Shown here piece by piece: positions 7,549 through 55,325 of a DNA stretch of 64,000 nucleotides (positions within the stretch are counted from its first letter, which is position 1; the number at the start of each line of letters is the position of its first letter). Source of the DNA: Candidatus Kaiserbacteria bacterium. Its GTDB lineage: Bacteria; Patescibacteriota; Minisyncoccia; Phycocordibacterales; UBA918. The notes beneath the pieces were generated by a model. That model did no database searches and was not told the origin of the DNA. It was given only the letters and a program-made list of their open reading frames with translations. The stretch covers positions 704,317 to 768,316 of the forward strand of contig CP064968.1 in assembly GCA_016699245.1 (NCBI GenBank), given 5' to 3'. Position numbers and translations under genes: made by a program.

Positions 7549-7665
7549 ATTCATGAAATGTGAGCTCTGCTCACCAACACGTGCACTGCACGTGTATTTC
7601 ACTGGATAAATCCGGTGAAATGTGAGTTTCACTCACTGACACGTGCACTGCACGTGTATTTCACT
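7549..7665. repeat. Two tandem copies of a ~55-nt structured element (outer stem GGTGAAAT/ATTTCAC plus two internal hairpins), separated by ATAAAT(CC) spacers
   Basis: Copy 1 7549-7603 and copy 2 7611-7665. Each has hairpins GTGAG..CTCAC and ACACGTGCA-C-TGCACGTGT. A third related copy lies at 21390..21442. Confidence 0.8.
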
Positions 7666-7711
7666 GGATAAATATTTTTGAAGTGCAAAACGTATAGTGT
7701 ACACTTGCTGT

Positions 7712-8338
7712 ATGGAACGTCAGCACATTATTACACTTACCGGAAAGCCTGGGAGTGGAAAATCATCAACGGCCGACCGTGTCGCAGAAATGCTTGGGTA
7801 TACACGGTATTCTTCTGGTGAGTATGTACGTGCTATTACGCAGAAACATAAAATAACCTTGAGTGACTTTAATACCCGTGCTGAATCACATCCTGAAATG
7901 GATCAACAAATTGATATTGCGCTACGTAAACTTCGCGATCAGAGTGATATCGTCATTGATGCACGTCTTGGTTTCTACTGGATTCCCGAATCCTTCAAAG
8001 TATTCCTTGACCTCAATAGCGATGTAGCAATTGCACGTATCTTCAAAGATGCCAATTTTAATACTGGCCGCAGTGGCGCTGGTGAAGGAGGTGACGTAAT
8101 GAACGATGTGGCTGACCAGGTAGAAAAACGTATGCGGAGTGAGCGCATTCGTTTCAAAAAACTCTATGGCGTTAATCCCTATAGTATCGAACATTTTGAT
8201 CTCGTGATTGACACCGCGCAACACAGCCCACAAACCGTAGCACTTACTATTTTCGATACCTATAAAAGATGGTTGAAATCCTCAAGTTGGAAACAAGTAA
8301 TCAGCAGAGTACCTCTAGGATTCTCGTTTAAACACTGA
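7712..8338 (+). CDS. Cytidylate kinase-like P-loop NMP kinase (paralog 2)
   Basis: ORF 7697 has a GTG start. ATG at 7712 gives MERQHIITLTGKPGSGKSS, parallel to the paralog 1 N-terminus. Confidence 0.65.
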   Translation: MERQHIITLTGKPGSGKSSTADRVAEMLGYTRYSSGEYVRAITQKHKITLSDFNTRAESHPEMDQQIDIALRKLRDQSDIVIDARLGFYWIPESFKVFLDLNSDVAIARIFKDANFNTGRSGAGEGGDVMNDVADQVEKRMRSERIRFKKLYGVNPYSIEHFDLVIDTAQHSPQTVALTIFDTYKRWLKSSSWKQVISRVPLGFSFKH

Positions 8339-39371: not shown

Positions 39372-40985
39372 TCACCGAAACGGAAAAGAAGACTTGGAAT
39401 CCCCTGAAGCGCTTTGCGCTTCTCGGGATTTTTCTTTTTTAGTTTTTAATTTCTCTTTTCCTTCAACCTCTTCTTCAATTATCCATCCTGCGTAGGGGTT
39501 CTCTTCTTCGTTCTGTTTCTCACGAGTGAAATACACATACCCCACTCCCACGAGCACGTATGAAACGAGTACAATCCAAAATGGAAACGCATTCACTGAG
39601 AATGAGGCAAACGGGAGATTTCCGAAAAATTCTGCAATGCGCACAATGTACATAAGCGAAAGGTATGCAAAGAAGCCAAAAAGGGTACCGAGTGGAACAG
39701 AGACAAGCCCGAGGACACCCGTGAGAAATGTGAGTCCCATGGCGGGAGGCACCATGGGGAGCACAAGCACATTTACGACGAGTGCCACTACGGAAAAAAG
39801 TCCCATGTGGTACAAAATGAGTGGGAGAACAGCAATTTGTGTCGCGATGGTCGCGGTCACAAACATGCGGATGCCATACTTTTCTGGTACATACGTGAGT
39901 CGTTTTTCTATGTGTGGCGAAAAAAGGATAAGCCCCAACGTTGCGAGAAACGAGAGTTGGAACCCAGGATCGTGCACGAGGAGGTACGGATTCCACACAA
40001 GCATACCGACAAGTGCGAGCATGAGTGCGCGAATGACTGCATACAGTCGCCCAGTCCCCCGTGCCACAATGAGAAGAATCGCCATAAAAGATGCGCGCAG
40101 AACAGTGGATGAAAATCCGACAAGGAGTGCGAAAGTAATGACAAGCCCTATACCAAGAAACATGCGCGTTCGTGGAAAGAAAAGAAATGCGAGGACGTAC
40201 GTGATAATCTCGACCACAATCATGATGTTGTACCCCGAGAGTACAACAATATGAATGATGCCGGTCTCACGAAACGTTCGCTCAAGATCTTCTCCGAGCG
40301 CACGCTTCACGCCGAGAAGCACTCCCTCTCCCAATCCAGCAGCTGGCTCGGGCACCGCACGCTCGAGAGCATCCATGAATGCACTCTTTCCATGGTAGAG
40401 ACCCCTGAGAAATGAGTTTGTTTCACTTTTCTCAATATGTACCTTCGCATAGGGGAGTGTGTAGAAGACATTTTTTGCACGAAGGTACCCAGGGTAGTCA
40501 AAAGTACGCCCACCATCTGCCTCAAATGCTTCTGGTTTTTTAAGAACACCCTCAGCGTGTACGACATCTCCATACGAAACTCCCTCTTTTGCAAACAGAA
40601 ATCTGTCTGCAGTTACCAAGACGAGTTCATTACTTTCTTCAGTATCTGGCTTTACGTAGAGATGAATAGTCTTCGCCCGATACTCTGGTTCACGTGCGAT
40701 AACTCCATGAATTACCACATTCGTTTCCTCCTGTGCACGAAGGGGAGATTCGTACGTTTCTGCATATCCTAGACGAAACAGACCAAGCGAAGTAGAAATA
40801 AATATGAGCGCACAGAAAAAAAGTGGCGCATCAAATTGAGAAGTCTTAATACGCCACGCAACCAAGCACGCGACCCCGATAAGAAGAACGAGTGCAGCGC
40901 CCTCATAGCCAATATCAAAAAACGAGCGGATAAAAATTCCGCTCGTGAATGCTATACCAATTGTATAAAAAATTGTATTTTGCAT
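39372..40985 (-). CDS. comEC: ComEC/Rec2 DNA-uptake channel (N-terminal DUF4131 plus competence membrane domain, no MBL domain)
   Basis: 537 aa, polytopic. ...IIHIVVLSGYNIMIV...VLRASFMAILLIVA... competence-domain pattern. Confidence 0.75.
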   Translation of the reverse strand: MQNTIFYTIGIAFTSGIFIRSFFDIGYEGAALVLLIGVACLVAWRIKTSQFDAPLFFCALIFISTSLGLFRLGYAETYESPLRAQEETNVVIHGVIAREPEYRAKTIHLYVKPDTEESNELVLVTADRFLFAKEGVSYGDVVHAEGVLKKPEAFEADGGRTFDYPGYLRAKNVFYTLPYAKVHIEKSETNSFLRGLYHGKSAFMDALERAVPEPAAGLGEGVLLGVKRALGEDLERTFRETGIIHIVVLSGYNIMIVVEIITYVLAFLFFPRTRMFLGIGLVITFALLVGFSSTVLRASFMAILLIVARGTGRLYAVIRALMLALVGMLVWNPYLLVHDPGFQLSFLATLGLILFSPHIEKRLTYVPEKYGIRMFVTATIATQIAVLPLILYHMGLFSVVALVVNVLVLPMVPPAMGLTFLTGVLGLVSVPLGTLFGFFAYLSLMYIVRIAEFFGNLPFASFSVNAFPFWIVLVSYVLVGVGYVYFTREKQNEEENPYAGWIIEEEVEGKEKLKTKKEKSREAQSASGDSKSSFPFR

Positions 40986-41006
40986 ATCGCACTTTCTCCC
41001 TCTGCA

Positions 41007-41717
41007 CTACCCTGCCCACTCTGCCTTCAAAGTCATCTCCTCTTCTTTTGAAAAAACTTTTTTGAATTTTGCCTTTTTACCTTTCACACGCGCTTCACAC
41101 TCTGCCCATGTTTTCTGTGAGAGCACTTTTCCTTCGACGAGTGAAACGTATGCATACGCGGGACCAGTCTTTTTTGTTTTTGAGGATGACTTTGAAACCA
41201 CGCGCGCCTTTGGCATTGTACTGAGGAATGCATCATATGCATGTTTGGTACCCTTGAATAATTGCACCACCTCCTTGCGTGCATACCCATTTGCAATCAT
41301 GTCGACACGCTCATTGAGTGCGACCCCTTCATGTCCCCGCACATGTTCCCACGTCACCGTATGCTTCTTCACCTCTGTGAAGAGTTCTTGCCAAATATCT
41401 TTATTGAGTACATCTTTTTTTTCTTTTGTTTGCCATCCATTTTTTTCCCACCCAAAAACCCACTTGGTGATGCCGTTAATTACGTACTGCGAGTCGGTTT
41501 TGAGGGTGAGTGTTGTCTCTGGCTTGCAACTTCTGAGTGCCATGAGTGACGCAGTAAGTTCCATGCGATTATTAGTGGTGTGCGGAGCATCCCCACCCCC
41601 TTCATACGCATGGTCTCCATGAAGTACCGTGAAGCCCCACCCCCCAGGGCCTGGATTCCCAATAGCACTCCCGTCACAATAGATTGTCGTCTGTGTATCT
41701 TTATCAGAAAGTTTCAT
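41007..41717 (-). CDS. rnhA: Ribonuclease HI with ~90-aa Lys-rich C-terminal extension
   Basis: IYCDGSAIGNPGPGGWG...TNNRMEL...TDSQYV...HEGVALNERVD. Confidence 0.85.
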   Translation of the reverse strand: MKLSDKDTQTTIYCDGSAIGNPGPGGWGFTVLHGDHAYEGGGDAPHTTNNRMELTASLMALRSCKPETTLTLKTDSQYVINGITKWVFGWEKNGWQTKEKKDVLNKDIWQELFTEVKKHTVTWEHVRGHEGVALNERVDMIANGYARKEVVQLFKGTKHAYDAFLSTMPKARVVSKSSSKTKKTGPAYAYVSLVEGKVLSQKTWAECEARVKGKKAKFKKVFSKEEEMTLKAEWAG

Positions 41718-41852
41718 GGTCTATATATATGTCCACAATTATCGTTATGCTCTATCAATTCACCTTCTACCGAATATGTGTACCACAGTATAACATTGAC
41801 GCATAAAAATATTTCTGTATGATTCCTTTTGGAACATCAACGAGGAGTAAAA

Positions 41853-42035
41853 ATGAGTACAAACGAGAATGAAAGTATATTTGATCGCTTTTCTCTTGGT
41901 GAGGGTAAAGCGAGCGAAGTGATCAATCCTTCTTCTAGGCCAAATGCTGTCCCTATTGGAAGGGCCATTCACATTCCCGCATCAAAAGACTATCCTACTG
42001 GAGTACATCTGCAGTACATCAAGGTTCAAAAGTAA
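41853..42035 (+). CDS. Hypothetical small protein
   Basis: 60-aa ORF with GGAG 6 nt upstream, followed by terminator 42045-42073. Confidence 0.3.
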   Translation: MSTNENESIFDRFSLGEGKASEVINPSSRPNAVPIGRAIHIPASKDYPTGVHLQYIKVQK

Positions 42036-42044
42036 GAATCTTGC

Positions 42045-42073
42045 AAAAGGCCCGCAAATCACCGCGGGCCTTT
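42045..42073. terminator. Bidirectional intrinsic terminator (also ends recJ)
   Basis: aaaaggcccgcaaatcaccgcgggccttt. Confidence 0.65.
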
Positions 42074-42125
42074 ATCATGCCATCATGAATCCTTCTGTAT
42101 TGCGTAAGATACCTGCTCCATATCC

Positions 42126-43844
42126 TCACTTCACAATATCAATAATACGAATACGTATCTCCTGCCTGCCCATAAAATACGATTTCTCAATATGTCCAAT
42201 GAGAGTATAGATATTCCCCTTTTCTGGCACCACTGAAAAACTGGATGGGAGACGAAAAAAAGCAATGGCATCCTGAAATCCATTTTCTGTTTTGAAACGA
42301 AGTTTTGTGTGATTTTGTGCTTTTCCAAAAATCGAAACACTCTCGGGCACTGCTTCCACAATTTCAAAAATTGGTTTTGGATTCCCCACACCAAAGGGGG
42401 CAAAGGTGTCGAGTGTGCGCATGAGTGTGTCGGTAATATCACTAAGTGTAATACGAGCATCCACTTGAAGTATGTCTGATTCGTGCGGGGTGCTGCTTTG
42501 TTCATCGTGCGCACGGACGAGTGCTTCAGGAAGGGTATGAATTGCATCATGACTGACCGAAAATCCACCCGACGCATGGTGCCCCCCGAAGGTAAGGAAT
42601 GAATCCTTCGCCTGCTCCATAATATGCACAATGCTCGATGTCCCCTCACTCCGGCATGAGCCTTTAATGATTCCCTTTCCATCACGTCCCCAAAGGAATG
42701 TGGGTTTCCCATACTCTTCTGCAAGTGCATTCGCTACCAGCCCCACGAGTGACGGACGCCATTCAGGATTTCCCATCACAATCACCGAAGGAATCAGAGA
42801 AAGTTGACCCATGCGCTTTTTAGCTTCTTTGGTCATACTCGCTACTACTCCCTTACGCTCGTTATTGAGTTTTTCAAGATGTGCGACATACATCCCCGCC
42901 TCCCCTTCATCTTTTGTTCGAAGCATATGAAAAGCATCCTCAGGGTCGTCCATGCGCGATGCGGCATTGATGCGCGGTGCAATAGTAAATCCAATATCAT
43001 CTTCGGTCAGATGTGCTTGGCTTCCTCCTGCTTTGTAGAGCAACTGCTGTATGCCAGGGCGTTTTGATTTACGCAATACCGAAAGTCCATAGCGTGCGAG
43101 TACACGGCTTTCATCCATAAGTGGCATCATATCTGCCACAGTCGCAATACCCACAAGGTCGAGCCACCATTTTTCCCATCCATCTTTTAGCGTAATGCTA
43201 CCATTTTCTTTACCGCGAATAAGAATTGCTTGCACGAGTTTAAAAGCCACCGTCGTCCCGCAAATCCCCTGAAAAGGGTACGCGTTGTTGCGCTTTGGAT
43301 TAATCACTGCATAGGCATTCGGAAGTGTGGCACTCGGCTCATGGTGGTCGGTCACAATTACATCGATACCTGCAACATTTGCTGCGTCCACCGCCTTATG
43401 GTCGGTGATACCACAATCCACGGTAATGATAAGTTCGGCCTTTCGTTCTACAAACTTCGCCACAGAGTCCACATTGAAACCATATCCCTCCTCGTGCCGG
43501 TGGGGAATATAATTTTCAAAATTGGTATACAGAATCGCGGTGAAAAAGTCATGGAGTAACACACCCCCTGGAATTCCATCACAATCATAGTCGGTATAAA
43601 TAACAATATGCTCATTGTTTTTAATAGCACGAAGTACTCGTTCCACTGCCTTTTCCATGTCAGTGAGAAGAAAGGGGCTATGCAGATGAGTCTCATAATC
43701 GGGATTAAGAAATTTTTCTGCACTCTCTGCATCGATAATGCCTCGATGAAATAAAAGTTGCTGTACAAACGTGTCATATATTCGAAGTGTATCGCTCACC
43801 TCTGGGGGAATAGGGCGCGGTGCACGAATTTTAGGATTCGTCAT
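42126..43844 (-). CDS. recJ: Single-stranded-DNA-specific exonuclease RecJ
   Basis: DHH family: YTDYDCDGIPGG, VTDHHEP, GGHHASGG. Confidence 0.85.
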   Translation of the reverse strand: MTNPKIRAPRPIPPEVSDTLRIYDTFVQQLLFHRGIIDAESAEKFLNPDYETHLHSPFLLTDMEKAVERVLRAIKNNEHIVIYTDYDCDGIPGGVLLHDFFTAILYTNFENYIPHRHEEGYGFNVDSVAKFVERKAELIITVDCGITDHKAVDAANVAGIDVIVTDHHEPSATLPNAYAVINPKRNNAYPFQGICGTTVAFKLVQAILIRGKENGSITLKDGWEKWWLDLVGIATVADMMPLMDESRVLARYGLSVLRKSKRPGIQQLLYKAGGSQAHLTEDDIGFTIAPRINAASRMDDPEDAFHMLRTKDEGEAGMYVAHLEKLNNERKGVVASMTKEAKKRMGQLSLIPSVIVMGNPEWRPSLVGLVANALAEEYGKPTFLWGRDGKGIIKGSCRSEGTSSIVHIMEQAKDSFLTFGGHHASGGFSVSHDAIHTLPEALVRAHDEQSSTPHESDILQVDARITLSDITDTLMRTLDTFAPFGVGNPKPIFEIVEAVPESVSIFGKAQNHTKLRFKTENGFQDAIAFFRLPSSFSVVPEKGNIYTLIGHIEKSYFMGRQEIRIRIIDIVK

Positions 43845-43927
43845 AGTGAAGTGATTTTAGCACGCAAACCACATGTGTCCTAAAAGAGTATTTTGCGGAG
43901 TGAATGCTTTTTGATACCATTACGTGC

Positions 43928-44338
43928 ATGAGTACTATTTTCACTAAAATCATCAGCAAAGAAATTCCTGCAGACATTATATATGAGGACGAACACGTGC
44001 TTGCGTTTCTCGACATTAACCCCATCAAGAAAGGTCACGCGCTTGTGGTGCCAAAAGTAGCTTATGAAAATATTTTTGATTGCGACACAATGACACTTAG
44101 CCACATGGTCGAAGTTGCACAAAAAATTGCGCGGGCACAAGTAGCAACCCTCGGTGCAAAAGGAGTAAACCTCCAGATGAATAATGGTCATGAGGCAGAC
44201 CAAGATATTCCCCATGCGCACATACATGTAATTCCCCGATTTGCCCGTTTTGAAGCTTTCGTGAGGGCCTCCCATGAAGCATATACTGATGGCGAAGGCG
44301 CTCACTTGGCAGAGATACTTAAAAAAGCGATTGCATAG
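43928..44338 (+). CDS. HIT family protein (histidine triad nucleotide hydrolase)
   Basis: HAHIHVIPR triad. Start taken at MSTIFTKIISKEIPA (the ORF opens at 43904). Confidence 0.8.
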   Translation: MSTIFTKIISKEIPADIIYEDEHVLAFLDINPIKKGHALVVPKVAYENIFDCDTMTLSHMVEVAQKIARAQVATLGAKGVNLQMNNGHEADQDIPHAHIHVIPRFARFEAFVRASHEAYTDGEGAHLAEILKKAIA

Positions 44339-44364
44339 CAATCGCTTTTTTAAGTATTGGAAAA

Positions 44365-44865
44365 TCAGAATTCTGATTTCAATTCCAACTCCTTCTCATC
44401 AAAATCCATTACTTCCTTCCACTCCATTTTTTCAATACTTTTTCCGTCCTCTTGAAACCATACCTTTCCACGAAGCTTCTCACCTTTGAGAGCTCGTGGA
44501 AGCCAGTACTCATCATCGGCCCACATCTTTTCAAACGGGATTTCAGTGTGCGTGAACCACTGCGGTCGCATCTCTTCGGTTTCAACTGGTTCTCCTTCCC
44601 ACCTATCGACAAAGAACGTATACACCTCAAGATGTTTCCCGTCTGCAAAAAGAAATTCAGTGATTGCGACTTTTTCAAGATCACTCTCTTTAACTACCAC
44701 CCCTGATTCTTCCTGTATTTCTCGCACCGTTGCAGTTTCGATTGACTCCTCATCTTCGACCTTGCCACCGTACCCATTCCAATTCCCCTCTCCGAACCCC
44801 CGTTTTTTCATTGCAAGACAAATCTCTCCATTCCTTTGCAAAAACGCGAGTGTGTATTTTTTCAT
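44365..44865 (-). CDS. Nudix hydrolase (MutT-like)
   Basis: Nudix box GGKVEDEESIETATVREIQEESG. Confidence 0.8.
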   Translation of the reverse strand: MKKYTLAFLQRNGEICLAMKKRGFGEGNWNGYGGKVEDEESIETATVREIQEESGVVVKESDLEKVAITEFLFADGKHLEVYTFFVDRWEGEPVETEEMRPQWFTHTEIPFEKMWADDEYWLPRALKGEKLRGKVWFQEDGKSIEKMEWKEVMDFDEKELELKSEF

Positions 44866-44870
44866 ACTTT

Positions 44871-44935
44871 CTTTTATTGTTTCAATGCCTCTATCCCCGG
44901 AAGAGTTTTATGTTCCAAAAAGTCGAGCGATCATT
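44871..44935. repeat. Remnant copy of the pgk 3' end (encodes LDFLEHKTLPGIEALKQ-stop). Direct repeat of 46511..46574.
   Basis: About 54 nt align with the pgk terminal codons, with 6-7 synonymous differences. Preceded by an in-frame stop, so non-coding. Confidence 0.8.
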
Positions 44936-44962
44936 TAGGTTATACTAAATTAGTGAATAGTG

Positions 44963-45316
44963 TTATTTCGGTAACAGATCAATTATAATTTCTGTTTTTT
45001 GCGTTTTTGGTGTCAAATCATCGTTATATAAACTTGTCGTTGCTGCATTATTTTCGAGAGACGGTACTATCATAGGCATTCCTGATGTTGCTTGTACCTG
45101 CTCATCAGTTGTTGAGCCCAAAATTTCAAAATTTTGATAGTCTCCATCTATTTGCTCTTCTGTTTCATTTTGTGGTATGTCTGAAATTTGAATATCTTTG
45201 TTATTATACATGCCACGGTAATATGTATTAACAAAAAAGAGAATAGCATACAAAATAACGACAAGGACGATAATCCCTATCGATACTTTACACATAGTAC
45301 GCGTTGATTGGTTCAC
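44963..45316 (-). CDS. Hypothetical small membrane-anchored protein
   Basis: 117 aa, N-terminal TM IGIIVLVVILYAILFFV, 15 nt downstream of 45332..46333. Confidence 0.5.
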   Translation of the reverse strand: MNQSTRTMCKVSIGIIVLVVILYAILFFVNTYYRGMYNNKDIQISDIPQNETEEQIDGDYQNFEILGSTTDEQVQATSGMPMIVPSLENNAATTSLYNDDLTPKTQKTEIIIDLLPK

Positions 45317-45331
45317 AAAATAAAATTTAGG

Positions 45332-46333
45332 TTACTCTATGACATCTAATATAACAACACCGTCACGTCCTACGTCTGAATTTGTACATGTACCCACATA
45401 GCTAGCGGTTGTATGACATCCGCTACGGAACACACTACCTCCAGAACCATATCCGAATGGGGTTGTGCCGCCTGGATAAATGCCTGAGGATACAGCCCAC
45501 TGAATTGGACCTCTATTTCCAATTCCATACAAACTTGGACCACAAGCACCAGGACCATTTCCTGCCACAAATGAACCTGTAGCAACCCTGTTTGGTGATG
45601 AATATGCTGGCGTACCACCTCCTACTATTGCGCCGTCCACATGACCAGCAACAGTATAAATACCGCCCAGGTACGTATCCACGCCCCCGACGTATGCACC
45701 ACTCCCCCCTGAACACTCAAGTAATGTACCGCTCACACTTGAGGTAATCTTCGATGAAGATCCGGGATAACCACCAAGACCATCATCATCGCTTGGGTAT
45801 GTGTATATATAATAAGGTGCTCCACGGTCTGCGAGGACTCCAGTATTAACCACCGCACTACCCCTACCACCTCTTCCGACCTGAATATGAATTGTCTCTC
45901 CTGGTGTGAGCGAAATTGGATGTGAAAATACATACCCCCCTGAATGACCGGCAAAAACCGCGTTCACTACTCTCCACCCAACACCACTCCCTCCTCCACC
46001 TGCCATTGTCACCTCTGCACTAGTCACATTTGAAGGCACTACCCAATCTTGAGTAGACGTAAAGACGATTCGTCTTTTATTGATTGCTCTATTATCAACA
46101 TAATCCTTCGTCACCAGTGTCGTGCCTACATCTAAAGCAACTGTTGATGCGGTATTTATTTTACCTACTTTTGTTTGACTATCTGGCCCCACATTAATAG
46201 GCGCAGAAACATTTTGTGATGTTGGGTCTGGTGGTGGTGGCGTCCAAGGACCAGTCCATGCTGATACGACAGTAACGACAAGTGCTAAGGAGACAACGGT
46301 GGTTAGTGTATAGCGAAGGAGTGCTTTATTCAT
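45332..46333 (-). CDS. Secreted Gly-rich protein, paralog of 1330..1947
   Basis: ATG at 46333 (MNKALLRYTLTTVVSLALVVTVVSAWTGPWTPPPPDPTSQNVSAPINV...). The ORF extends to 46450. Confidence 0.6.
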   Translation of the reverse strand: MNKALLRYTLTTVVSLALVVTVVSAWTGPWTPPPPDPTSQNVSAPINVGPDSQTKVGKINTASTVALDVGTTLVTKDYVDNRAINKRRIVFTSTQDWVVPSNVTSAEVTMAGGGGSGVGWRVVNAVFAGHSGGYVFSHPISLTPGETIHIQVGRGGRGSAVVNTGVLADRGAPYYIYTYPSDDDGLGGYPGSSSKITSSVSGTLLECSGGSGAYVGGVDTYLGGIYTVAGHVDGAIVGGGTPAYSSPNRVATGSFVAGNGPGACGPSLYGIGNRGPIQWAVSSGIYPGGTTPFGYGSGGSVFRSGCHTTASYVGTCTNSDVGRDGVVILDVIE

Positions 46334-46511
46334 ATATGGTGGAGTGTGTCTAATGTTAATTAACCCAATATTACTGATAAGTGTAACCCCCCCCCCGCAC
46401 ATGGAGGCAATATGAAGAAGTGGGATAGCGCGTGTAACGGTACTAACCATTCTCTATATTACGCAGTTAATAATTGCTACACCCTCATTTTAATTTTCTT
46501 TTTTCTATTTT

Positions 46512-47639
46512 CTATTGTTTCAATGCTTCAATTCCTGGAAGAGTCTTGTGTTCCAAAAAGTCGAGCATCGCACCACCTGCGGTTGAAACAAATCCAAATG
46601 ATTCCGTTATACCGAGTGACTCAATAGCAGTCACGGTGTCACCTCCACCCACCACCGAGTATGCGTCGCTTGTAGCAATCATTTCGGCACAACGCTTCGT
46701 GGCATCGTCAAATCCTCCTTCGTAGTTACCAAGAGGCCCATTCCACACAATCGTTTCTGCTTCTCTGATAAAAGGTGCGAGTGCATCCACCGAGCGGGGA
46801 CCGACGTCGAGAATTTTCTCGTCAGATTGAACGTGCTCGACAAGCACCTCACGCTTACCATGCTCTCCACCAACCACGACATCGACGGGCAAAATAATAC
46901 TTTCTCGTTCGAGAAGCAAATTCCCCTTCATATCAACAGAAGAAAGAAGTGACTCCCCCACAGGGAAACCTTTCCCTTTCAAAAAATCATTCGCGAGAGC
47001 ACCCCCAATGAATGTGTGTGTGTAGTCTCTAGAATATTCCTCAACAAGTGGTTCCTTTGTCTCAAATTTAGCACCCCCAAGAATAAAAAGTGACGGACTG
47101 TGGGGCTTGAGCACTTTCGAAAGTTCGGTGTATTCATCTAAAAATGAGACGCCTGCAAAACTTGGAATGTATTTTGGGATACCAACGATTGATGCGTGTG
47201 GTCGATGAGACACCGCAAACGCATCGTTCACATAATACTCACCGTATGAAGCAAGCATTGCTCCAAAAGCGGCATCATTTTTTTCTTCTCCTTCGTGTGA
47301 ACGTAAATTCTCGAGAAGTACCACTTCCCCTTCCTCCATTTTTGCTAGTGCATCTGTGACCACCGACCCCAACAACGCAGGTACATACGTAATAGGGACA
47401 TATTCCTGAAGCGCTTGTGCGAGCACCTCAAGTGTCGTTTTAGGATTTCTGCCAAGATGGGTGAGAAGTACCACTTTCGCCCCTCCGAGCATAAGATGTG
47501 TGATAGTAGGCAATGCACGAACAATTCTAAAGTCACTTTGTATCACTCCATCAATCATAGGAACATCGAAAGGAACCCTCACCAATACATGTTTCCCGCG
47601 AACGTCAGATATCTCCATGACCGAATGTATTTTTTTCAT
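46512..47639 (-). CDS. pgk: Phosphoglycerate kinase
   Basis: PGK N- and C-domain motifs. C-terminus ...MLDFLEHKTLPGIEALKQ. Confidence 0.9.
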   Translation of the reverse strand: MKKIHSVMEISDVRGKHVLVRVPFDVPMIDGVIQSDFRIVRALPTITHLMLGGAKVVLLTHLGRNPKTTLEVLAQALQEYVPITYVPALLGSVVTDALAKMEEGEVVLLENLRSHEGEEKNDAAFGAMLASYGEYYVNDAFAVSHRPHASIVGIPKYIPSFAGVSFLDEYTELSKVLKPHSPSLFILGGAKFETKEPLVEEYSRDYTHTFIGGALANDFLKGKGFPVGESLLSSVDMKGNLLLERESIILPVDVVVGGEHGKREVLVEHVQSDEKILDVGPRSVDALAPFIREAETIVWNGPLGNYEGGFDDATKRCAEMIATSDAYSVVGGGDTVTAIESLGITESFGFVSTAGGAMLDFLEHKTLPGIEALKQ

Positions 47640-47645
47640 AGATAT

Positions 47646-48416
47646 TTACATAGTACGCACCGCCTTAGCAATGTGCGTAAACTCATCAGGATGCAAACTT
47701 GCCCCCCCTACCAAGAAGCCGTCCATCATACCGTCTGCATGAAGTGCTTGTGCATTCTGTGCAGTGACCGAGCCACCGTAAATAATACGCACTTTTTGCG
47801 CTATATTACGCCCATAAAGGTCAGAAAGTATTTTTTCAATAAAAAGTTTCATTTCGTGAATATCTTCTGCAGTAGCATTTTTTCCACTCCCAATAGCCCA
47901 GAGAGGTTCGTATGCAATGACGACCTGCCCTAATTTTGCTTTCGAAAGAAGAGCAAGACCTTTCCTGACTTGTGTCTCAATAGTGTTGAGATAATGGCCA
48001 CTGTGGTCTCGATGACCTTCGCCAACACACAAAATGCCCGTAAGGCCAGCCTTTATCACCGCCACGAGTTTTTCATTGATGAGCGGATCTTTTTCTCCGA
48101 GTGCTCGCCTTTCTGAATGCCCGAGAATCACATGCGATACTCCTAAGTCCTGAAGTAAGGGTAATGAAATTTCGCCCGTATGGGGGCCTAGTTTTGCTGG
48201 GTGCACATTCTGCGCACCGAGAGCAAAAATATCACTTCCACTTCGCACCTTTTGTACGCCAGAAAGATGTACGTAAGATGGTGCGATAACTATCTCCACA
48301 TCTTTTACAGATTGTAACTTTTTCTTGAGTTCGGTTGCTAGTTTCGCCCCAAGCGAAATAGACTGCGGATTCATCTTCCAGTTCCCAACGACGAGCGGGA
48401 GAATGCCTTTTTTCAT
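47646..48416 (-). CDS. tpiA: Triosephosphate isomerase
   Basis: VVGNWKMN, TIM barrel motifs. Confidence 0.9.
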   Translation of the reverse strand: MKKGILPLVVGNWKMNPQSISLGAKLATELKKKLQSVKDVEIVIAPSYVHLSGVQKVRSGSDIFALGAQNVHPAKLGPHTGEISLPLLQDLGVSHVILGHSERRALGEKDPLINEKLVAVIKAGLTGILCVGEGHRDHSGHYLNTIETQVRKGLALLSKAKLGQVVIAYEPLWAIGSGKNATAEDIHEMKLFIEKILSDLYGRNIAQKVRIIYGGSVTAQNAQALHADGMMDGFLVGGASLHPDEFTHIAKAVRTM

Positions 48417-48447
48417 ACTTTTATTCTACCATGCAGGGGGGATTAGA

Positions 48448-48486
48448 GGGAAAGCGCTCTCTGCCTATAGGCAGAGAGCGCTTTCC
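48448..48486. repeat. Perfect 17-bp hairpin (loop TATA) between the pilus genes and tpiA
   Basis: ggaaagcgctctctgcctataggcagagagcgctttcc. No adjacent T-run. Confidence 0.6.
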
Positions 48487-48498
48487 TCAAAATGTATG

Positions 48499-49914
48499 CT
48501 ATATCTCTTCCCAGAATACCGTCACATATTGATCTCCGGTAAGAGGAAAACCCGGTGGTGGTGAATACAGCAAGTTCCCATCATAATTGATATTACGCGT
48601 TGCGTAGCCTGTATTATCGGTATATGCAAATCCGTAGCGCAAATTAGTGGCAATCATCCCCCAAAGTGTTAGGGTCGAACGATCGTCATAGGGGGAACAG
48701 TCTGACTCATAATAAAGTCTTCCTACCAAGCCATTCTGCGCTATGAGCGCAGCATCAATTCGCAAATCATTTTCACTCACCATCCCCGCAAGTACGTTTC
48801 CTTGTGCAATAAGACCAATGGTGTCTGTACCATCATATTTCGTATACAGTACATCATTATTAATGATGATGTTTTTTCGTGTTGCTGCATTGTCTGGCAA
48901 GACCGCAGATACTATATTGAGACGAGCACTATTAATTTGTCCATTCACAAATACATGATCCTCAAAAAAGAGAATGCCATTACTCGGAAAGGCGTAATTA
49001 CCAAGCAATACTTGGTTTTGAACACTCCATGTTCCCCATCCTGATTGTCCGGCACTGTTATTACATCCCCCTGGTGCATTCGTCATACTGGTCACGCGAT
49101 ACAAATCGAATGTATCATTTGTTTTCAACACAACATGATATCCGAGCGAGCCCGAGCCCGGTCTATAAAACCCACTTGCCTGCGCATTTGATTTTAATTG
49201 TGACAAATTTGAGGTAATCCCCCCAAAATCAATTGAGGGTACGGGGAATGTACGTCCAATTTCAAATACATCAGCTCTTGAGGGGACGGCGGTCGGTGGT
49301 AGTGGGTCAGTGGGAAAATCGTGAGTATGAACTCCATACTCATTTACTCCGGAGTGATCGGGGTCATCATAGGTAGCTACCCCACTCGTAACCAAGTTAT
49401 GTGCAACACCATCAAATCGCAATCCTTGATTTGAATGAATAGGCCCAAACACTTCCGTTCCCGCTCCAAATCGCATCATGCTATTTGCAACAACCGCATA
49501 TTTTGCAATTGATGGTTTTGCAAACTGGACTCTGAGTGAACGTTGCACTCCCTCCAAGGTCCTCCCTGTTGAAGTAACAATCACCACTGTTGATCCAAGT
49601 GGTGGTGGTACGATTTGGAGTGAGAAATCTCCAATAATGTTGCCGTCTTTATCACGAAACGAATGAACATACGGGCCCGAAGTTGCAGTCCCATCCATAA
49701 AATCAAGAGGTGCGTGTGCAAGGTGCCAACGATAATAATCAATACCCGCCTCTGCTATTTGAATTGCTTGCTCGCGATCGGACATTCGTTGTGTTGCAAT
49801 AACATCGGTAATGCCCCATCGTACCAAACCACCTAAAAGTACCACACCGATTGAAGCACACACGAGTACCAGTATGAGAACATATCCCTTTGTTTTGTAG
49901 GTATGCATGCTCAT
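48499..49914 (-). CDS. Pilus-associated protein with pilin-like hydrophobic N-terminus (PilX-like minor pilin candidate)
   Basis: 471 aa. N-terminus KGYVLILVLVCASIGVVLLGGLV. Overlaps the next pilin gene by 4 nt (ATGA). Confidence 0.45.
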   Translation of the reverse strand: MSMHTYKTKGYVLILVLVCASIGVVLLGGLVRWGITDVIATQRMSDREQAIQIAEAGIDYYRWHLAHAPLDFMDGTATSGPYVHSFRDKDGNIIGDFSLQIVPPPLGSTVVIVTSTGRTLEGVQRSLRVQFAKPSIAKYAVVANSMMRFGAGTEVFGPIHSNQGLRFDGVAHNLVTSGVATYDDPDHSGVNEYGVHTHDFPTDPLPPTAVPSRADVFEIGRTFPVPSIDFGGITSNLSQLKSNAQASGFYRPGSGSLGYHVVLKTNDTFDLYRVTSMTNAPGGCNNSAGQSGWGTWSVQNQVLLGNYAFPSNGILFFEDHVFVNGQINSARLNIVSAVLPDNAATRKNIIINNDVLYTKYDGTDTIGLIAQGNVLAGMVSENDLRIDAALIAQNGLVGRLYYESDCSPYDDRSTLTLWGMIATNLRYGFAYTDNTGYATRNINYDGNLLYSPPPGFPLTGDQYVTVFWEEI

Positions 49915-50534
49915 AGATTGTCTTTTAGATTACGAAGATTAACCTGTGTTGTATAGATGTCTGGTGTCGAAGAGGCTGAAGAACTCGTATCGGCCACTAT
50001 ATAGATTTTGACAAGTCGTACTACCGAGATGTTAAAGGGTTCAACGAGTGGTGTACTCGTACCCGCATATGTCTCATTGTAGTATGAGAAAAGTGGAGTG
50101 GTAGTACTATTTTTGACTGCGTGCACGAGCTCCGTACGCATTTCGTTGGCGACGTTATATACCAAAGGGCTTCCTGTTGCATTGATCACCCCACGCATGA
50201 GCACACCGCTCTGGAGAAAATATCGTATACGCTCCTTTTCACTATCACTGTCTATGTCGCTATAGAATATGAGTGACGATGTCCCTGTCTGCTCGAGTGC
50301 ATACGCACCGACACTCGATGGGGATGCTGTACGTAGTTCAGCAGTCATCGTCTTTATCGCGCGACGCCCTTCTCCTGTCTGTGAAAGCGATGCAGATACG
50401 CTTCGATTCACACTAAACATGTCTATGAGAAGCTTTGTGGCTATAAGACCAATGAGTACCGCGATACCAAGTACCACAAGTATTTCAACAAGGGAAAAGC
50501 CTAGATTTTTGCGAGATGATTGTATAGTGCTCAT
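49911..50534 (-). CDS. Type IV pilin / pseudopilin (prepilin-type N-terminal cleavage motif G|FSLVE)
   Basis: MSTIQSSRKNLGFSLVEILVVLGIAVLIGLIA. Confidence 0.75.
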   Translation of the reverse strand: MSTIQSSRKNLGFSLVEILVVLGIAVLIGLIATKLLIDMFSVNRSVSASLSQTGEGRRAIKTMTAELRTASPSSVGAYALEQTGTSSLIFYSDIDSDSEKERIRYFLQSGVLMRGVINATGSPLVYNVANEMRTELVHAVKNSTTTPLFSYYNETYAGTSTPLVEPFNISVVRLVKIYIVADTSSSASSTPDIYTTQVNLRNLKDNL

Positions 50535-52327
50535 GGTAAAAGAAGTACTTCCTCGTGTGTCCAGTTATTACTCACCGTAATCGACTTGGTATACACCTGG
50601 TACCCTGATGAAGTAACCGTCAATGTATACGTGCCGGCACCAATCCCCGTAAACAACACCTGTCCTGGTGGAGTACAATTTGATGTAAACGTAAATGCCA
50701 CATCAGATACCGTTGGTGTCCAGGTACTACTTGCAGTAGCAAGGAATAGTTTATATCGGATATAGCGGTCTCCTGTATGTACTGCATGAATATCCGTGTT
50801 CGTGACATCATAATATGTTCCCAGAGTCCCATCGGGTCCTTTAAAATCCCATGTGGTCATATCATTGTTGGTAGCAACTTGTATGCGGACGCTATCTGCT
50901 CCCGTCTCTGGTGGCTGTGATTGTGGTTGCAAGAGAATCTGCTTAAATGCGCTACTCGTTCCAGTATCAAATGTAGATGATGTTAGTGTACCATTCCCTG
51001 CAAAGGCACCGAAGGTCTCTTTTAATTGTACTTGCCCTACGGGATTTATATTTTCAATATCGGTGTCATCTTCAAAATATTCGGTTGCATTGGTATACAT
51101 ACTCTGCCCATCTCCCCCCGACCAGTCAGTTTGTGACATATACCCTCGTCCTGTTATATTGGTAACATCATACCCGCTCTTTTGAAGACGTACGGTCGCA
51201 CCCGAAATAGGGAGGCCTGTACCCACATCCTTTACGGTTACTAAGAGTGTGCGTGGATTTTTGGGGACGACGATAAGCGATATGTTTTGGTGTGTATCGG
51301 GATTAAGTGTAAATGGCAATGATGGAATGGTTCCTCCTAAGTCATAGGTTACGTCAGCCACATCAAGATGATACGTGTCCCATTCAAGATCTGGAACTGT
51401 TTCTAATCCTCCACCATTCGTTGAATACGCTTGTGAAAATTTTATAACATCCGGTGGTGTTGTGCCGATAATTTTTTCTCCGGTAAGACTAAAATCTATA
51501 TTGCCGACAGGCGTACAGGTATCGGTCATACTCGTCACCTCAAATTCACTCACCGTATCAATAGAAAAACTCACCTGCGACAGTTGCTGGGACACTACCG
51601 TTGCGTGAGGTTTTGAGGGATTTGGATTTGCAACGTCACCAATCATGTACGTGCGCTCGCTCGAATACCCTGGCTTCGATACGGAAATCTCGTATGCATT
51701 GATGCCTGGTGGTGCATCAATAATTTGCACATACCCATCATTATTTGTGGTATCGTCAATAACAATAGAGGTCGTGGCGACATTGTTTTCGATATGCACA
51801 TCAGCCCCCTGAATCGCCTGCCCCGCTGCATCAAACACGTGTATAAAGAGAGCACCGTTTGTTGAAGATGTTTCGAGACCGCGTGGGCCAATATGCGATG
51901 TAAAGGACATTGGCGCAAAGTCCTTACAAAACGCACAATCGATAGTAAGTTCAGCAAGTCGATAGTCAGATGGTGAAAGATCATTTTTCGTACTACTTCC
52001 AATCTGTCCATCAAAAGGATCGTCAATATTACGTATTACTGTGGTAACCGTAAATTCAACACCATCACGTGTAAGTGTCTGGATGTGTGGAATACTACCA
52101 TTCGGAAGACCTCCTTGAATACCAACATCCTCATAGGAAAGGTTTCGTATGATTTCCATTTGTTCATTTGCGAGAGCAGTTGCAGTAACTTTATTTTGTG
52201 ACACGAGGGCTACTCGAACAACAGTCGAAAAAGTTTCGTACAAAGCGAGGGCAATCATGAGAAAAATCGTTGTCGCAACAATCACTTCAATGAGTGTAAT
52301 TCCTGCACATGTGCGTTTATTGTTCAT
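50531..52327 (-). CDS. Large pilin-like protein (prepilin-type N-terminus G|ITLIEV), 598 aa
   Basis: ATG at 52327 gives the leader MNNKRTCAG|ITLIEVIVATTIFLMIALALY. The longer ORF to 52366 overlaps pilC. Confidence 0.65.
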   Translation of the reverse strand: MNNKRTCAGITLIEVIVATTIFLMIALALYETFSTVVRVALVSQNKVTATALANEQMEIIRNLSYEDVGIQGGLPNGSIPHIQTLTRDGVEFTVTTVIRNIDDPFDGQIGSSTKNDLSPSDYRLAELTIDCAFCKDFAPMSFTSHIGPRGLETSSTNGALFIHVFDAAGQAIQGADVHIENNVATTSIVIDDTTNNDGYVQIIDAPPGINAYEISVSKPGYSSERTYMIGDVANPNPSKPHATVVSQQLSQVSFSIDTVSEFEVTSMTDTCTPVGNIDFSLTGEKIIGTTPPDVIKFSQAYSTNGGGLETVPDLEWDTYHLDVADVTYDLGGTIPSLPFTLNPDTHQNISLIVVPKNPRTLLVTVKDVGTGLPISGATVRLQKSGYDVTNITGRGYMSQTDWSGGDGQSMYTNATEYFEDDTDIENINPVGQVQLKETFGAFAGNGTLTSSTFDTGTSSAFKQILLQPQSQPPETGADSVRIQVATNNDMTTWDFKGPDGTLGTYYDVTNTDIHAVHTGDRYIRYKLFLATASSTWTPTVSDVAFTFTSNCTPPGQVLFTGIGAGTYTLTVTSSGYQVYTKSITVSNNWTHEEVLLLP

Positions 52328-52328
52328 A

Positions 52329-53558
52329 CTAACCAATACTATCTGAGAGCGAGTAGATAGGTGCAATCATCGCAAGGGCGAAGAATCCAACACCAGCACC
52401 AATGACCACCATGAGTATTGGTTCGATGATGGTTGAGAGGTCTTTGGTCTTTTGTTCAACTTCAGTTTCATAGAAAACAGCAATTTCTGTAAGCATTTGT
52501 GAGATTTGACCCGTTTCCTCTCCAACAGAGATCATCTCACCTACCAGAATAGGATAAATCTCCTCGTGGGCAATAAATGTCTCAGAAAGTGGACTCCCTT
52601 TCTCTACATGGAGCGCTGCCTCTTTCAAAACACGCTTGTAGTACACATTTTGGAGTACATCTTCGGTTATATTAATGGCGCTAATTACATCAACACCCGA
52701 TGAAAGAAGGGATGAGAGTGTGCGTGCGGTATAGGCGGAATTGGTTTGCTTCACTATGTTTCCAATTACCGGTAAGTGGATAAAAATAAAATGGAGACCT
52801 TTCCTTCCAAAAGTAGTCTTACTGATACCAATGATACTCCCCACAAAAGTAACAAAGCCGAGGATTGCCATTGCGCTGTGATTCGTGACAAAATCACTCA
52901 CGCTGATAACAAATTGTGTGCTACTCGGGAGTTCAGTGCCAGACTTTGTGAAGGTCTCCGTAAGGGTGGGCACTACAAAAATCATCATGAGAACACCAAT
53001 AATACACATGACCGAAAGAACAATGGTGGGATACATCATTGCTCCTTTGATTTTTTTCTTGAGATTTGATGACCGTTCGAGTTGCATCGCGATAGTTTGC
53101 AGTGCCGGCACCATTCCTCCACTCTCCTCACCAGCACGCACCATCGCTACATACAAACGTGAAAAGGTTCCGGGAAATGCTTTGAGCGCTTCATGAAACG
53201 GGTCACCTTTGTTGATACTTTCGCGAACATGTACCATTACCCCTTTCAAGCGAGGATTTTTCGATTGACGTTCAATCACTGAAAGAGCGCGTGAAAGCGG
53301 GAGTCCGGCTTTAAGCATCGAGGATAGGTTGCGTGTTGTCATCACCAGCTCGTCTGCTTTGACGCGACTGAGGTAATAGTTGATACGCTCTATGTTAAGG
53401 AAGCGCGCGAGCGAAAATTTCCCCTGTTCCTGTATATTCGTGACCACATGACCACTCGTACGCGCGATTTCATACACCGCATATTTATCAACCGCCTCAA
53501 CAGTCTCGGTTATTTTTTCTCCGTCTTTTGTGGTGCCTGTATACGTGAATTTTTCCAT
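52329..53558 (-). CDS. pilC: Type IV pilus assembly / T2SS platform protein PilC/GspF family
   Basis: 409 aa, GspF-domain pattern, three TM segments. Confidence 0.8.
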   Translation of the reverse strand: MEKFTYTGTTKDGEKITETVEAVDKYAVYEIARTSGHVVTNIQEQGKFSLARFLNIERINYYLSRVKADELVMTTRNLSSMLKAGLPLSRALSVIERQSKNPRLKGVMVHVRESINKGDPFHEALKAFPGTFSRLYVAMVRAGEESGGMVPALQTIAMQLERSSNLKKKIKGAMMYPTIVLSVMCIIGVLMMIFVVPTLTETFTKSGTELPSSTQFVISVSDFVTNHSAMAILGFVTFVGSIIGISKTTFGRKGLHFIFIHLPVIGNIVKQTNSAYTARTLSSLLSSGVDVISAINITEDVLQNVYYKRVLKEAALHVEKGSPLSETFIAHEEIYPILVGEMISVGEETGQISQMLTEIAVFYETEVEQKTKDLSTIIEPILMVVIGAGVGFFALAMIAPIYSLSDSIG

Positions 53559-53567
53559 AGGAACACA

Positions 53568-55325
53568 TTACTCAGAAATAACACGAAGTACTTCTTCAAT
53601 ACTTGTTTGTCCCAGTGCCGCTTTGTAGATACCGTCCTCGAGCATGGTGAGCATGTCCTCTTTACGCGCCTGTGCTTCAATAGCGTCTGCGGTACCTGAG
53701 GCAAGGACGATCTCTTTGATGCTCGGTGACACGTGGAGCACTTCATGAATGCCAATACGCCCCTTGTAGCCATCATCCTCTGGACCTTCCTTTGCCCGAT
53801 AAAATGGAATACTGTTCCATGTTGCGTTACTTTTCACTACTCCTTCTTTCTTGAGTGCATCAAGAATTCGGTCCATGTCGACGTGTTTTTCAATCTGTGC
53901 ACGCTCAGTGGCGCTCAGTGTGTAGGATTCTTTAGAGTCGGTAAGACGGCGTACGAGGCGTTGCCCCACCACCACATGCAGTGTGGATACGAGAAGGAAT
54001 GTCTCTACCCCCATATCGACAAGACGCGCTACTGTCGCTGAAGCGGAATTGGTGTGCACCGTGGCAAGTACGGAGTGTCCTGTGAGGGCCGCATTAATGG
54101 CGAGTGATGCCGTTTCTTGGTCACGAATTTCTCCCACCATAATGACGTCGGGATCTTGGCGCATAAGTGAGCGCAGTCCATTTGCAAATGAGAATCCAAT
54201 TTCAGGCTTTACTTGCGTCTGATTCACTCGTGCCATCTGGTATTCGACAGGATCTTCGATGGTACAAATGTTTACCTCGGGTGTGTTTAAAATATCGAGC
54301 ACAGTATAGAGCGTCGTGGTCTTACCAGAACCTGTAGGGCCCGTAACCAAAATGATTCCCGTTGTTTGCTTTGTGGCAGCGTAAATACGCTCAAGCGCCT
54401 GACCGTGAAATCCGAGTCCTTCAAGGGTATAGCCTGAACGCCCTTCGCGGAGAAGGCGCATAACGAGCTTTTCTCCAAAGAAAATAGGGAGGATAGAAAC
54501 ACGAAACGACACTTTTTGTCCATCCATCTCCATTTTAAAGCGTCCGTCTTGCGGTAAACGCTTTTCGTCGAGTTTCAAATTTGAAAGGACCTTAATACGC
54601 GCAGAAATGGTAGGTGCCGCATGCTTGGGGAGAGACATTGCATCATGGAGGATACCGTCAATACGATAGCGAACGAGGAGTTCATTCTCCATTGGTTCAA
54701 TATGGATATCAGATGCTGATTGAATAATAGCGTGATGAAGGAGTGTATCCACGATACGCACAACGGGCAAATCTTCTGCCATCTTTTTCAAGTCTTCTTC
54801 CGATGCTTCTTCCCCGCCATCTTCAGCAAGAATACGAAGCGCGGAGGACTCCTTTGCAATCAAGTCACCAAATTCATCCTTGAGGGTTTTTTGATATTGC
54901 TGAAGTGCATACTTCATTGATTCGGTGTCGGTGAGACGTGGAAGAATTTTGAGTCCCACCTTTTTCTTTACAAAGTCGATTGCCGGAAGGTCGGCAGTAT
55001 CGAGCATAGCAACCTCAAGAACATCATCAGCCTTGCGATAGGCAATAATATTATGATTTCGGGCCACAGGTTCAGGGATGAGCGAAAGGACTTCAAAAGG
55101 GATTTTTATGCCGTTGAGTGCCAAAAAGGGTACGCCGAGTACATATGATTCCACGCGTCGCAAATCATCCTCGGACATTGTTCCACTTGAAATGAGTGCC
55201 TCAGCAAGAGTACGCTTTTCTTCTATTGCTACTTTTTCGGCAGCATCAATATCCTTTCGGGTTACCAAACCCGAATCCATCACAAAACGCTTGAGTTGTG
55301 TATCTTGTATACGCATTGCCTCCAA
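53568..55325 (-). CDS. pilB: Type IV pilus assembly ATPase PilB/GspE family
   Basis: Walker A LVTGPTGSGKTTTL, GspE N-domain, tetracysteine-like region. Confidence 0.85.
   Translation of the reverse strand: MEAMRIQDTQLKRFVMDSGLVTRKDIDAAEKVAIEEKRTLAEALISSGTMSEDDLRRVESYVLGVPFLALNGIKIPFEVLSLIPEPVARNHNIIAYRKADDVLEVAMLDTADLPAIDFVKKKVGLKILPRLTDTESMKYALQQYQKTLKDEFGDLIAKESSALRILAEDGGEEASEEDLKKMAEDLPVVRIVDTLLHHAIIQSASDIHIEPMENELLVRYRIDGILHDAMSLPKHAAPTISARIKVLSNLKLDEKRLPQDGRFKMEMDGQKVSFRVSILPIFFGEKLVMRLLREGRSGYTLEGLGFHGQALERIYAATKQTTGIILVTGPTGSGKTTTLYTVLDILNTPEVNICTIEDPVEYQMARVNQTQVKPEIGFSFANGLRSLMRQDPDVIMVGEIRDQETASLAINAALTGHSVLATVHTNSASATVARLVDMGVETFLLVSTLHVVVGQRLVRRLTDSKESYTLSATERAQIEKHVDMDRILDALKKEGVVKSNATWNSIPFYRAKEGPEDDGYKGRIGIHEVLHVSPSIKEIVLASGTADAIEAQARKEDMLTMLEDGIYKAALGQTSIEEVLRVISE

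Follow-up and report, generated by a model that had tools for sequence, protein, structure and literature searches.

Integrative elements and cis-mobilisable elements (CIMEs) of streptococci have been described at the 3′ ends of fda, rpsI and rpmG; classical CIMEs, as outlined in that account, measure 1.2-13 kb (PMC7563491). The same account treats CIMEs as derivatives of integrative and conjugative or integrative and mobilisable elements, recognised by attachment (att) sites held in common with integrase-bearing relatives and usually found in tandem (PMC7563491). Here we describe a locus of similar layout in a stretch of 64,000 nucleotides (nt), hereafter the window, from a Candidatus Kaiserbacteria bacterium (assembly GCA_016699245.1, contig CP064968.1, positions 704,317 to 768,316). 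In this stretch the phosphoglycerate kinase gene, pgk, is followed by a two-gene cassette, and a second copy of the pgk 3′ end lies beyond the cassette, next to a nudix hydrolase gene. The resemblance to the streptococcal CIMEs extends to the target, which is the 3′ end of a housekeeping (glycolytic) gene, to direct repeats on both sides of the insert, the proximal one rebuilding the gene, to a size within the 1.2-13 kb range and to the absence of integrase and transfer genes from the insert. It ends at the criteria by which CIMEs are recognised: neither this locus nor the pgk region of 165 related loci yielded integrase-bearing relatives, an integrase or genes for conjugation.

Three further systems invite comparison. 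In islands and prophages that target tRNA or tmRNA genes, the element supplies a replacement for the 3′ end of its target, and the native end, once displaced, becomes the distal repeat. The pgk locus follows this logic, but its target is protein-coding, the window contains no tRNA gene, and the insert, besides being very small, has no integrase. At accessory-gene hot spots, ordinary exchange proceeds by double homologous crossover, after which no gene end is present twice. The interval between pgk and recJ resembles such hot spots in carrying differing, mostly envelope genes between core flanks that can serve as homology arms, whereas the scar retained at pgk reveals a one-sided event. The third system is the displacement of 3′ ends at Rhs and type VI secretion system (T6SS) effector loci, for which homology-facilitated illegitimate recombination (HFIR), known from naturally transformable bacteria (PMC3240628), has been proposed as the origin (PMC5361080); the primary papers cited in these two sources are de Vries & Wackernagel 2002, Prudhomme et al. 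2002 and Jackson et al. 2009. As at Rhs, contact-dependent inhibition (CDI) and T6SS loci, the incoming DNA has the upstream gene sequence of the recipient and brings a new 3′ end together with downstream genes, and the old 3′ end persists downstream as an orphan whose start lies within conserved sequence. The process requires no dedicated recombinase; at pgk, the insert is about 1.6 kb and the host has competence genes. Unlike those loci, both pgk tails encode an identical housekeeping peptide, with no swap of toxin domains and no functional diversification; moreover, a single event is seen here where arrays are seen there, and HFIR is inferred here, a donor and a breakpoint having been sought but not found. 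The locus is a single case of a clean but rather ordinary footprint of known kind, left by horizontal transfer, and does not represent a new principle.

Two copies of the pgk end and the cassette between them

The direct repeat consists of the last 55 nt of pgk (copy B, 46512-46566, minus strand) and a second copy at 44874-44928 (copy A, minus strand), with a start-to-start distance of 1638 nt by both repeat search and pairwise alignment. An earlier note, made from the sequence alone, had described a 54-nt duplication of the pgk 3′ end with limits at 44871-44935 and 46511-46565; the repeat is real, and the sole dispersed repeat of its kind within the window, but it is 55 nt long and its exact limits are those given here. 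The copies differ at 7 of 55 positions (repeat positions 19, 22, 31, 34, 37, 40 and 55), all of which are third codon positions. Six of the differences are synonymous and the seventh exchanges the stop codon, TAA in copy A and TAG in copy B, in keeping with the six to seven synonymous substitutions counted previously. Both copies therefore encode LDFLEHKTLPGIEALKQ followed by a stop (18 codons plus stop). In a simulation, seven random substitutions were all silent with P ~1e-5.

The limits of the repeat are sharp, with similarity breaking off abruptly at both sides. The upstream and downstream flanks of the two copies resemble each other at chance level only (224/2000 and 965/2000 shuffles, respectively, reach the score). 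A longer repeat of 72 nt at 82% identity was rejected, the additional 17 nt being A-rich and no better than shuffles. The first 18 nt of the repeat, GCTCGACTTTTTGGAACA, at the gene-proximal edge, are the same in copies A and B and make up a candidate crossover or anchor region (46549-46566 on the copy B side, 44911-44928 in copy A, both minus strand). This 18-mer matches the window exactly twice, against 0.08 matches expected, and the further copies of the repeat for which the earlier note had suggested looking are absent from the window.

Every gene of the cassette region lies on the minus strand. An intact pgk ORF (open reading frame) of 375 amino acids (aa) spans 46512-47639 (Pfam PGK, E=1e-104; 89% identity to pgk of the sister species L001), and its body is contiguous with copy B, which supplies its last 18 codons and TAG. 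A leader of 178 nt (46334-46511) separates the pgk stop from the start of cargo gene 1 (45332-46333), which encodes a 333-aa secreted or anchored protein with a glycine-rich domain. Cargo gene 2 (44963-45316; GTG start, alternative ATG at 45295) encodes a 117-aa single-pass membrane protein. The two repeats bracket these two genes, as had been described. A 34-nt spacer (44929-44962) leads from the last stop of the cassette to the displaced tail, with the novel right junction at 44928/44929. Copy A was correctly described as non-coding: an in-frame TGA stands ahead of it (44933-44931), and the membrane-protein gene upstream is read in a different frame. After a further 8 nt follows the ATG of the nudix gene (44365-44865; Pfam NUDIX, 86% identity to the gene directly after pgk in L003). 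The identities of pgk and nudix, first read from the translations, agree with these Pfam matches. At the edges of the insert, the proximal repeat completes pgk and the distal repeat is copy A.

An artefact of assembly, in the form of a chimeric join of two related populations in a metagenome-assembled genome (MAG), would be very improbable as the origin of this arrangement. The source is indeed a MAG, and at exactly this end of pgk the sister assembly L001 is interrupted by a 100-N gap, which marks the region as hard to assemble. However, joining two populations at a homologous position would switch alleles rather than duplicate sequence, the junction between cassette and copy A offers no overlap for a mis-join, and the ORFs at the junctions, four in all, are intact. 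The gap in L001 (CAZMYZ010000002) occupies positions 7124-7223 of that scaffold and extends from two codons before the pgk stop into the HIT gene.

Relatives without the cassette and the age of the two tails

The locus was compared with 80 species-representative genomes and 80 metagenome contigs, recurrence being counted over 165 related loci. In relatives the conserved order is pilins-tpi-pgk-[nudix]-HIT(reverse)-recJ-rnhA. The empty pgk-nudix sites for which the earlier note had proposed a search exist: pgk directly abuts nudix in seven loci (L002, L003, L006, L007, L009, L010 and L087). In L003 the junction reads pgk stop, 9 nt, nudix ATG, and its surroundings nearly match copy A plus nudix. 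Removing the 1638 nt in silico makes the window colinear with L003 at 80% identity, with a single 1-nt indel in the spacer. The nudix gene is the ancestral downstream neighbour of pgk. Because the junction between copy A and nudix is orthologous to the intact pgk-nudix junctions of relatives, we take copy A to be the original pgk tail beside its original neighbour, and copy B to have been imported with the insert. At the informative silent sites, copy A has 4/6 in common with L001 and copy B 2/6, which leans weakly towards copy A as the native tail.

The nearest available genomes are at some distance. The closest nudix homolog among 5.8 billion proteins is 86% identical, and the closest pgk relatives reach 89% identity among genomes and 82% among metagenomes. 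Exact-match look-ups of pgk and nudix yielded no empty or filled sites at strain level. Across Paceibacteria, the pgk-recJ interval itself is a hypervariable hot spot, with envelope genes in many of the genomes: nudix is present or absent, HIT comes in two divergent types, and inserts encode peptidoglycan-binding, PKD, DD-carboxypeptidase, L,D-transpeptidase and DUF2238 proteins. Content varies even among close relatives, L086 having an unrelated 110-aa ORF.

Synonymous divergence between copies A and B is high, with a proportion of synonymous differences (pS) of 0.56 (6/10.7 synonymous sites). For comparison, pgk, tpi and recJ of this genome differ from their closest known relatives by pS 0.61-0.68, which is near saturation. 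Copy A nevertheless has zero non-silent changes and zero indels. Because pS is this high and copy A is yet free of such changes, the two tails appear to have diverged as functional pgk ends in separate lineages and to have been joined recently. The proposal that both copies were once under coding selection holds on the same grounds, silent-only differences at pS 0.56, with the addition that the selection would have acted in separate lineages. The transfer is recent relative to the divergence of donor and recipient. The cargo genes have a low G+C content at third codon positions (GC3), 0.30 for gene 1 and 0.27 for gene 2, against a window mean of 0.41 (sd 0.06).

The same substitution pattern bears on duplication in situ, by a long target-site duplication or by slippage, after which the copies would have diverged, copy A remaining frozen and copy B gaining silent changes or being overwritten by another allele. 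Selection on the functional copy alone would also give synonymous-only differences. A neutral copy A should, however, outpace the roughly 11 synonymous sites of copy B, and six silent changes in B against zero non-silent changes in A are untenable. A neutral non-coding copy would be riddled with non-silent changes and indels, and in-situ duplication plus drift is therefore excluded on this reasoning. An insertion of that age would also be expected in close relatives, whereas L086 and L003 do not have it, and no transposase is present. Target duplications of 55 bp are not known from transposons. Duplication in situ is effectively refuted by the substitution pattern, and we give it almost no weight.

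Routes of insertion

The history that best accommodates these data starts from an ancestor in which nudix came immediately after pgk. Recombination then placed about 1.6 kb of foreign DNA, contributed by another Kaiserbacteria-like lineage, in the last 55 nt of pgk. This DNA comprised a donor pgk tail (the last 18 codons), the 178-nt leader and the two cargo genes, one glycine-rich and adhesin-like, the other for its small membrane partner. The donor tail completes pgk with the protein sequence unaltered, and the native tail was moved 1638 nt downstream, where it remains undecayed and non-coding just ahead of nudix. The sequence itself and the comparison with relatives show these steps. As to mechanism, the recombination machinery of the host would have acted after DNA uptake, with no need of a dedicated integrase: the left end would be anchored by homology in the conserved 3′ region of pgk and the right end joined illegitimately. 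This process would be HFIR, with the logic of 3′-end displacement at Rhs and T6SS effector loci. Several features of the locus fit: pgk continues without a break into copy B, whose only differences from the native tail are at silent sites; the displaced tail is kept next to its original neighbour; and the right junction is non-homologous. As to context, the locus falls in the variable pgk-recJ interval, and the window has uptake and recombination genes on both sides of it, pilB, pilC and pilin-like genes on one side and recJ and comEC on the other. Saccharibacteria, which belong to the Patescibacteria, have been shown to undergo natural transformation with homologous recombination (PMC10633639). 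We regard the structural and historical part of this account as highly probable, whereas the account as a whole, including recombination by the host, stands at about an even chance.

The main competitor is a decayed or non-autonomous site-specific element of the CIME type, mobilised by an integrase acting in trans, in which attP would mimic the pgk end, the crossover would fall in an 18-nt core and the repeats would be attL and attR. This is a real but lesser possibility. Its layout is the classical one, with direct 3′-end repeats flanking an insert and the proximal copy completing the gene; the 18 nt at the gene-proximal edge are identical in repeats that are otherwise diverged; recombination at a short core needs no overall similarity between donor and recipient and so fits a pS of 0.56; and integrase-less elements in the 3′ ends of protein-coding genes are well documented in the streptococcal account (PMC7563491). 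The machinery that such an element would call for was looked for and did not appear. Integrase, resolvase, recombinase and transposase Pfam domains are absent from all ORFs of at least 180 aa in the whole window, with shorter ORFs scanned in the neighbourhood of the cassette only. The insert thus has no integrase, as the earlier note had said, and the nearby tyrosine or serine recombinase that it proposed to look for likewise did not turn up among these ORFs of the 64 kb. None of the 165 related loci has an integrase-bearing or repeat-bounded insertion at pgk, and a peptide-level search recovered a second pgk tail in none of them. Downstream of pgk in relatives, 59 non-syntenic ORFs within 3.5 kb match 32 Pfam families; the 25 of these 32 that were listed belong to the cell envelope or to housekeeping (PG_binding_1, PKD, DD-carboxypeptidase, YkuD, DUF2238 and others) and include no integrase or recombinase family. 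Searches of the relatives by tblastn with XerD and gamma-delta resolvase were also empty, this being a rough screen with no positive control.

The ends of the cassette were equally unproductive. No arm-type repeats or motifs common to the two ends were found, inverted repeats at the ends are none of them notable, and inspection of the 18-nt block revealed no dyad symmetry of the core type. A 15-nt similarity downstream of both cassette genes was rejected as a signal, being at chance level. IMG/VR returned no match to a degenerate pgk-tail pattern or to the cargo protein, and the related module in locus L081 (see below) has no att-like repeats. Across the wider clade the GCTCGACTTTTTGGAACA 18-mer varies at synonymous sites, whereas a maintained attB might be kept there. 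Two other kinds of element were considered and rejected. A transposon or insertion sequence is at odds with the lack of a transposase and of terminal inverted repeats and with a repeat that is 55 nt long and diverged; an integron gene cassette is at odds with the lack of an integrase in the window and with a cassette end that shows no notable inverted repeat (as judged without a formal attC model).

The data are compatible with both HFIR and an integrase-dependent islet. We favour HFIR, because the comparisons with element families were all negative and the L081 module is not bounded by att sites. Of the interpretation in the earlier note, that the locus is the footprint of an integrating element, one part survives: an insertion that came with a pgk tail of its own and pushed the native tail aside. 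The other part, status as a mobile element with attL and attR made by an integrase, is not supported.

A number of points nonetheless weigh against the HFIR account. HFIR typically deletes recipient DNA and does not leave a neat duplicate. If pS 0.56 reflects the divergence of the donor, RecA-dependent anchoring would work inefficiently. An identical 18-nt block that gives way to diverged sequence has the expected look of a site-specific core; by chance, none of the first 5 of the 18 third positions would have changed with a probability of ~0.05, which is a weak signal. The block may simply be a slowly evolving stretch, since pgk of L001, L003 and L004 has the same or nearly the same 18-mer. 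The integrase search spanned 64 kb of a genome of ~1.05 Mb. No recombination breakpoint was detected in tpi-pgk by sliding identity or by synonymous divergence in thirds of the gene against L001, a comparison made at ~80% DNA identity and with synonymous sites near saturation. A donor with the pgk-cassette arrangement was not found either: 0/165 loci have a homolog of the glycine-rich protein or of its membrane partner near pgk, which may be a limit of sampling. Lastly, transformation has been shown for Saccharibacteria only, as far as the account cited above extends (PMC10633639).

A third route would combine loop-out and loop-in: a repeat-flanked cassette of the donor would be excised as a circle and enter by a single Campbell-type crossover within the 55-nt homology. 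A single crossover with a circle carrying exactly 55 nt of homology yields both the duplication and the sharp limits, and the hybrid copies would differ at every difference between donor and recipient, as observed. We nevertheless consider this route improbable. With 87% identity over 55 nt and no identical run longer than 18 nt, the homology would serve RecA very poorly as a substrate; natural transformation imports linear single strands rather than circles; the route only shifts the origin of the repeat to another genome; and no second instance was found in the 165 loci.

A broader reading, which we consider doubtful, is that the pgk tail serves as the attachment or homology handle of a new system in Patescibacteria that moves small integrase-less adhesin cassettes between lineages. 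The agent of such a system might be an integrase whose gene lies elsewhere and whose target is the pgk 3′ end, or it might be competence together with a portable housekeeping-gene handle, with the islet described here as its first recognised member; this extension we hold to be just as speculative.

Whatever its mechanism, the locus is an unusually legible scar of transfer in Patescibacteria (the candidate phyla radiation, CPR), where mobile elements and gene transfer are poorly known. A surface module of the host-attachment type entered a reduced genome of the epibiont type from another lineage, and the insertion lies inside an essential glycolytic gene without damage to that gene. The silent-site signature of the donor in the pgk tail is a tag usable for tracing the donor. 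If the event was independent of a recombinase, it would be a natural case of one-sided homologous capture in a phylum for which experimental transformation is only recent. If an integrase was involved, it would point to an unrecognised family of elements that target pgk.

Cargo and gene neighbourhood

The product of cargo gene 1 is identical (100%) to NCBI IPH92_03785 of Ca. Kaiserbacteria, and the next homolog is 59% identical. Its match to Pfam Gly_rich_2 (23.8 bits) is slightly below cut-off, and its N-terminus resembles an uncleaved anchor or a signal. In the AlphaFold2 model, residues 80-333 have pLDDT >90. Foldseek matched this model to the fibre of cyanophage Pam3, the tail tip of mycobacteriophage Bxb1 and the glycine-rich domain of ALK/LTK, with a probability of ~1 and TM-scores of 0.3-0.4 for the best matches. 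Homologs that are 45-63% identical over the domain come mostly from Bdellovibrio, Pseudomonas and Trinickia, and many of them have a type IV pilin N-terminal methylation motif or Shufflon_N. A role as an adhesin or receptor-binding protein, of the fibre-tip kind, is likely by inference from these resemblances. In Bdellovibrio and Pseudomonas the glycine-rich domain is fused to type IV pilin or PilV-shufflon N-termini. Cargo gene 1 itself has no pilin motif, yet it lies just downstream of a type IV pilus operon.

Cargo gene 2 has no match in Pfam or NCBIfam. The closest homolog of cargo gene 1 (59%) is found in another Patescibacterium, at locus L081 between groEL and nrdR, where it adjoins two small single-pass membrane proteins. 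One of these, of 105 aa, is 28% identical to the product of cargo gene 2, has the same architecture and has in common with it a C-terminal EIxxDLLP. The paired homologs are thus adjacent in L081 as well, and therefore cargo genes 1 and 2 form a module. There are no flanking repeats at the L081 module.

The 178-nt leader ahead of cargo gene 1 contains one promoter-like match; it has no terminator-like site on the minus strand and matches no Rfam family. A tract of ten G on the coding strand (C10 on the plus strand) lies at 46387-46396, 54-63 nt upstream of the ATG of the glycine-rich gene, and is in frame with an upstream ATG at 46450 that would give a 372-aa variant of the ORF. The tract could be a phase-variable switch for the surface protein, or it could be a homopolymer error of long-read sequencing.

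A second, analogous two-gene module lies at 655-1947 of the window (minus strand) and encodes a 205-aa secreted protein followed by a 218-aa single-pass membrane protein. Neither protein has a Pfam match, and GC3 is 0.33 and 0.21. The 205-aa protein and the product of cargo gene 1 have a common N-terminal leader, AWTxP..PP..NV.APINV..Q.K.G (BLASTP E=3e-6). This similarity suggests that the genome may hold a family of surface modules that share the leader.

The genes tpi and pgk stand within a neighbourhood of DNA uptake and processing (window 39372-55325) that comprises pilB, pilC, three pilin-like genes, nudix, HIT, recJ, rnhA and comEC. This gene order is kept in relatives. A hairpin with a perfect 20-nt stem (44315-44357) lies between the convergent HIT and nudix genes and is likely a terminator; its matches in Rfam are sub-threshold only. 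A perfect 19-nt palindrome (48449-48486), between a pilin-like gene and tpi, is likely a terminator as well.

Two further repeats lie elsewhere in the window. Tandem 58-nt elements at 7554-7611 and 7616-7673 are 90% identical, contain internal palindromes and sit between two paralogous cytidylate-kinase-like genes (6979-7548 and 7697-8338). Three tandem repeats of 63 nt (21 codons) with decreasing identity span 2160-2348, inside an ORF at 2138-2518.

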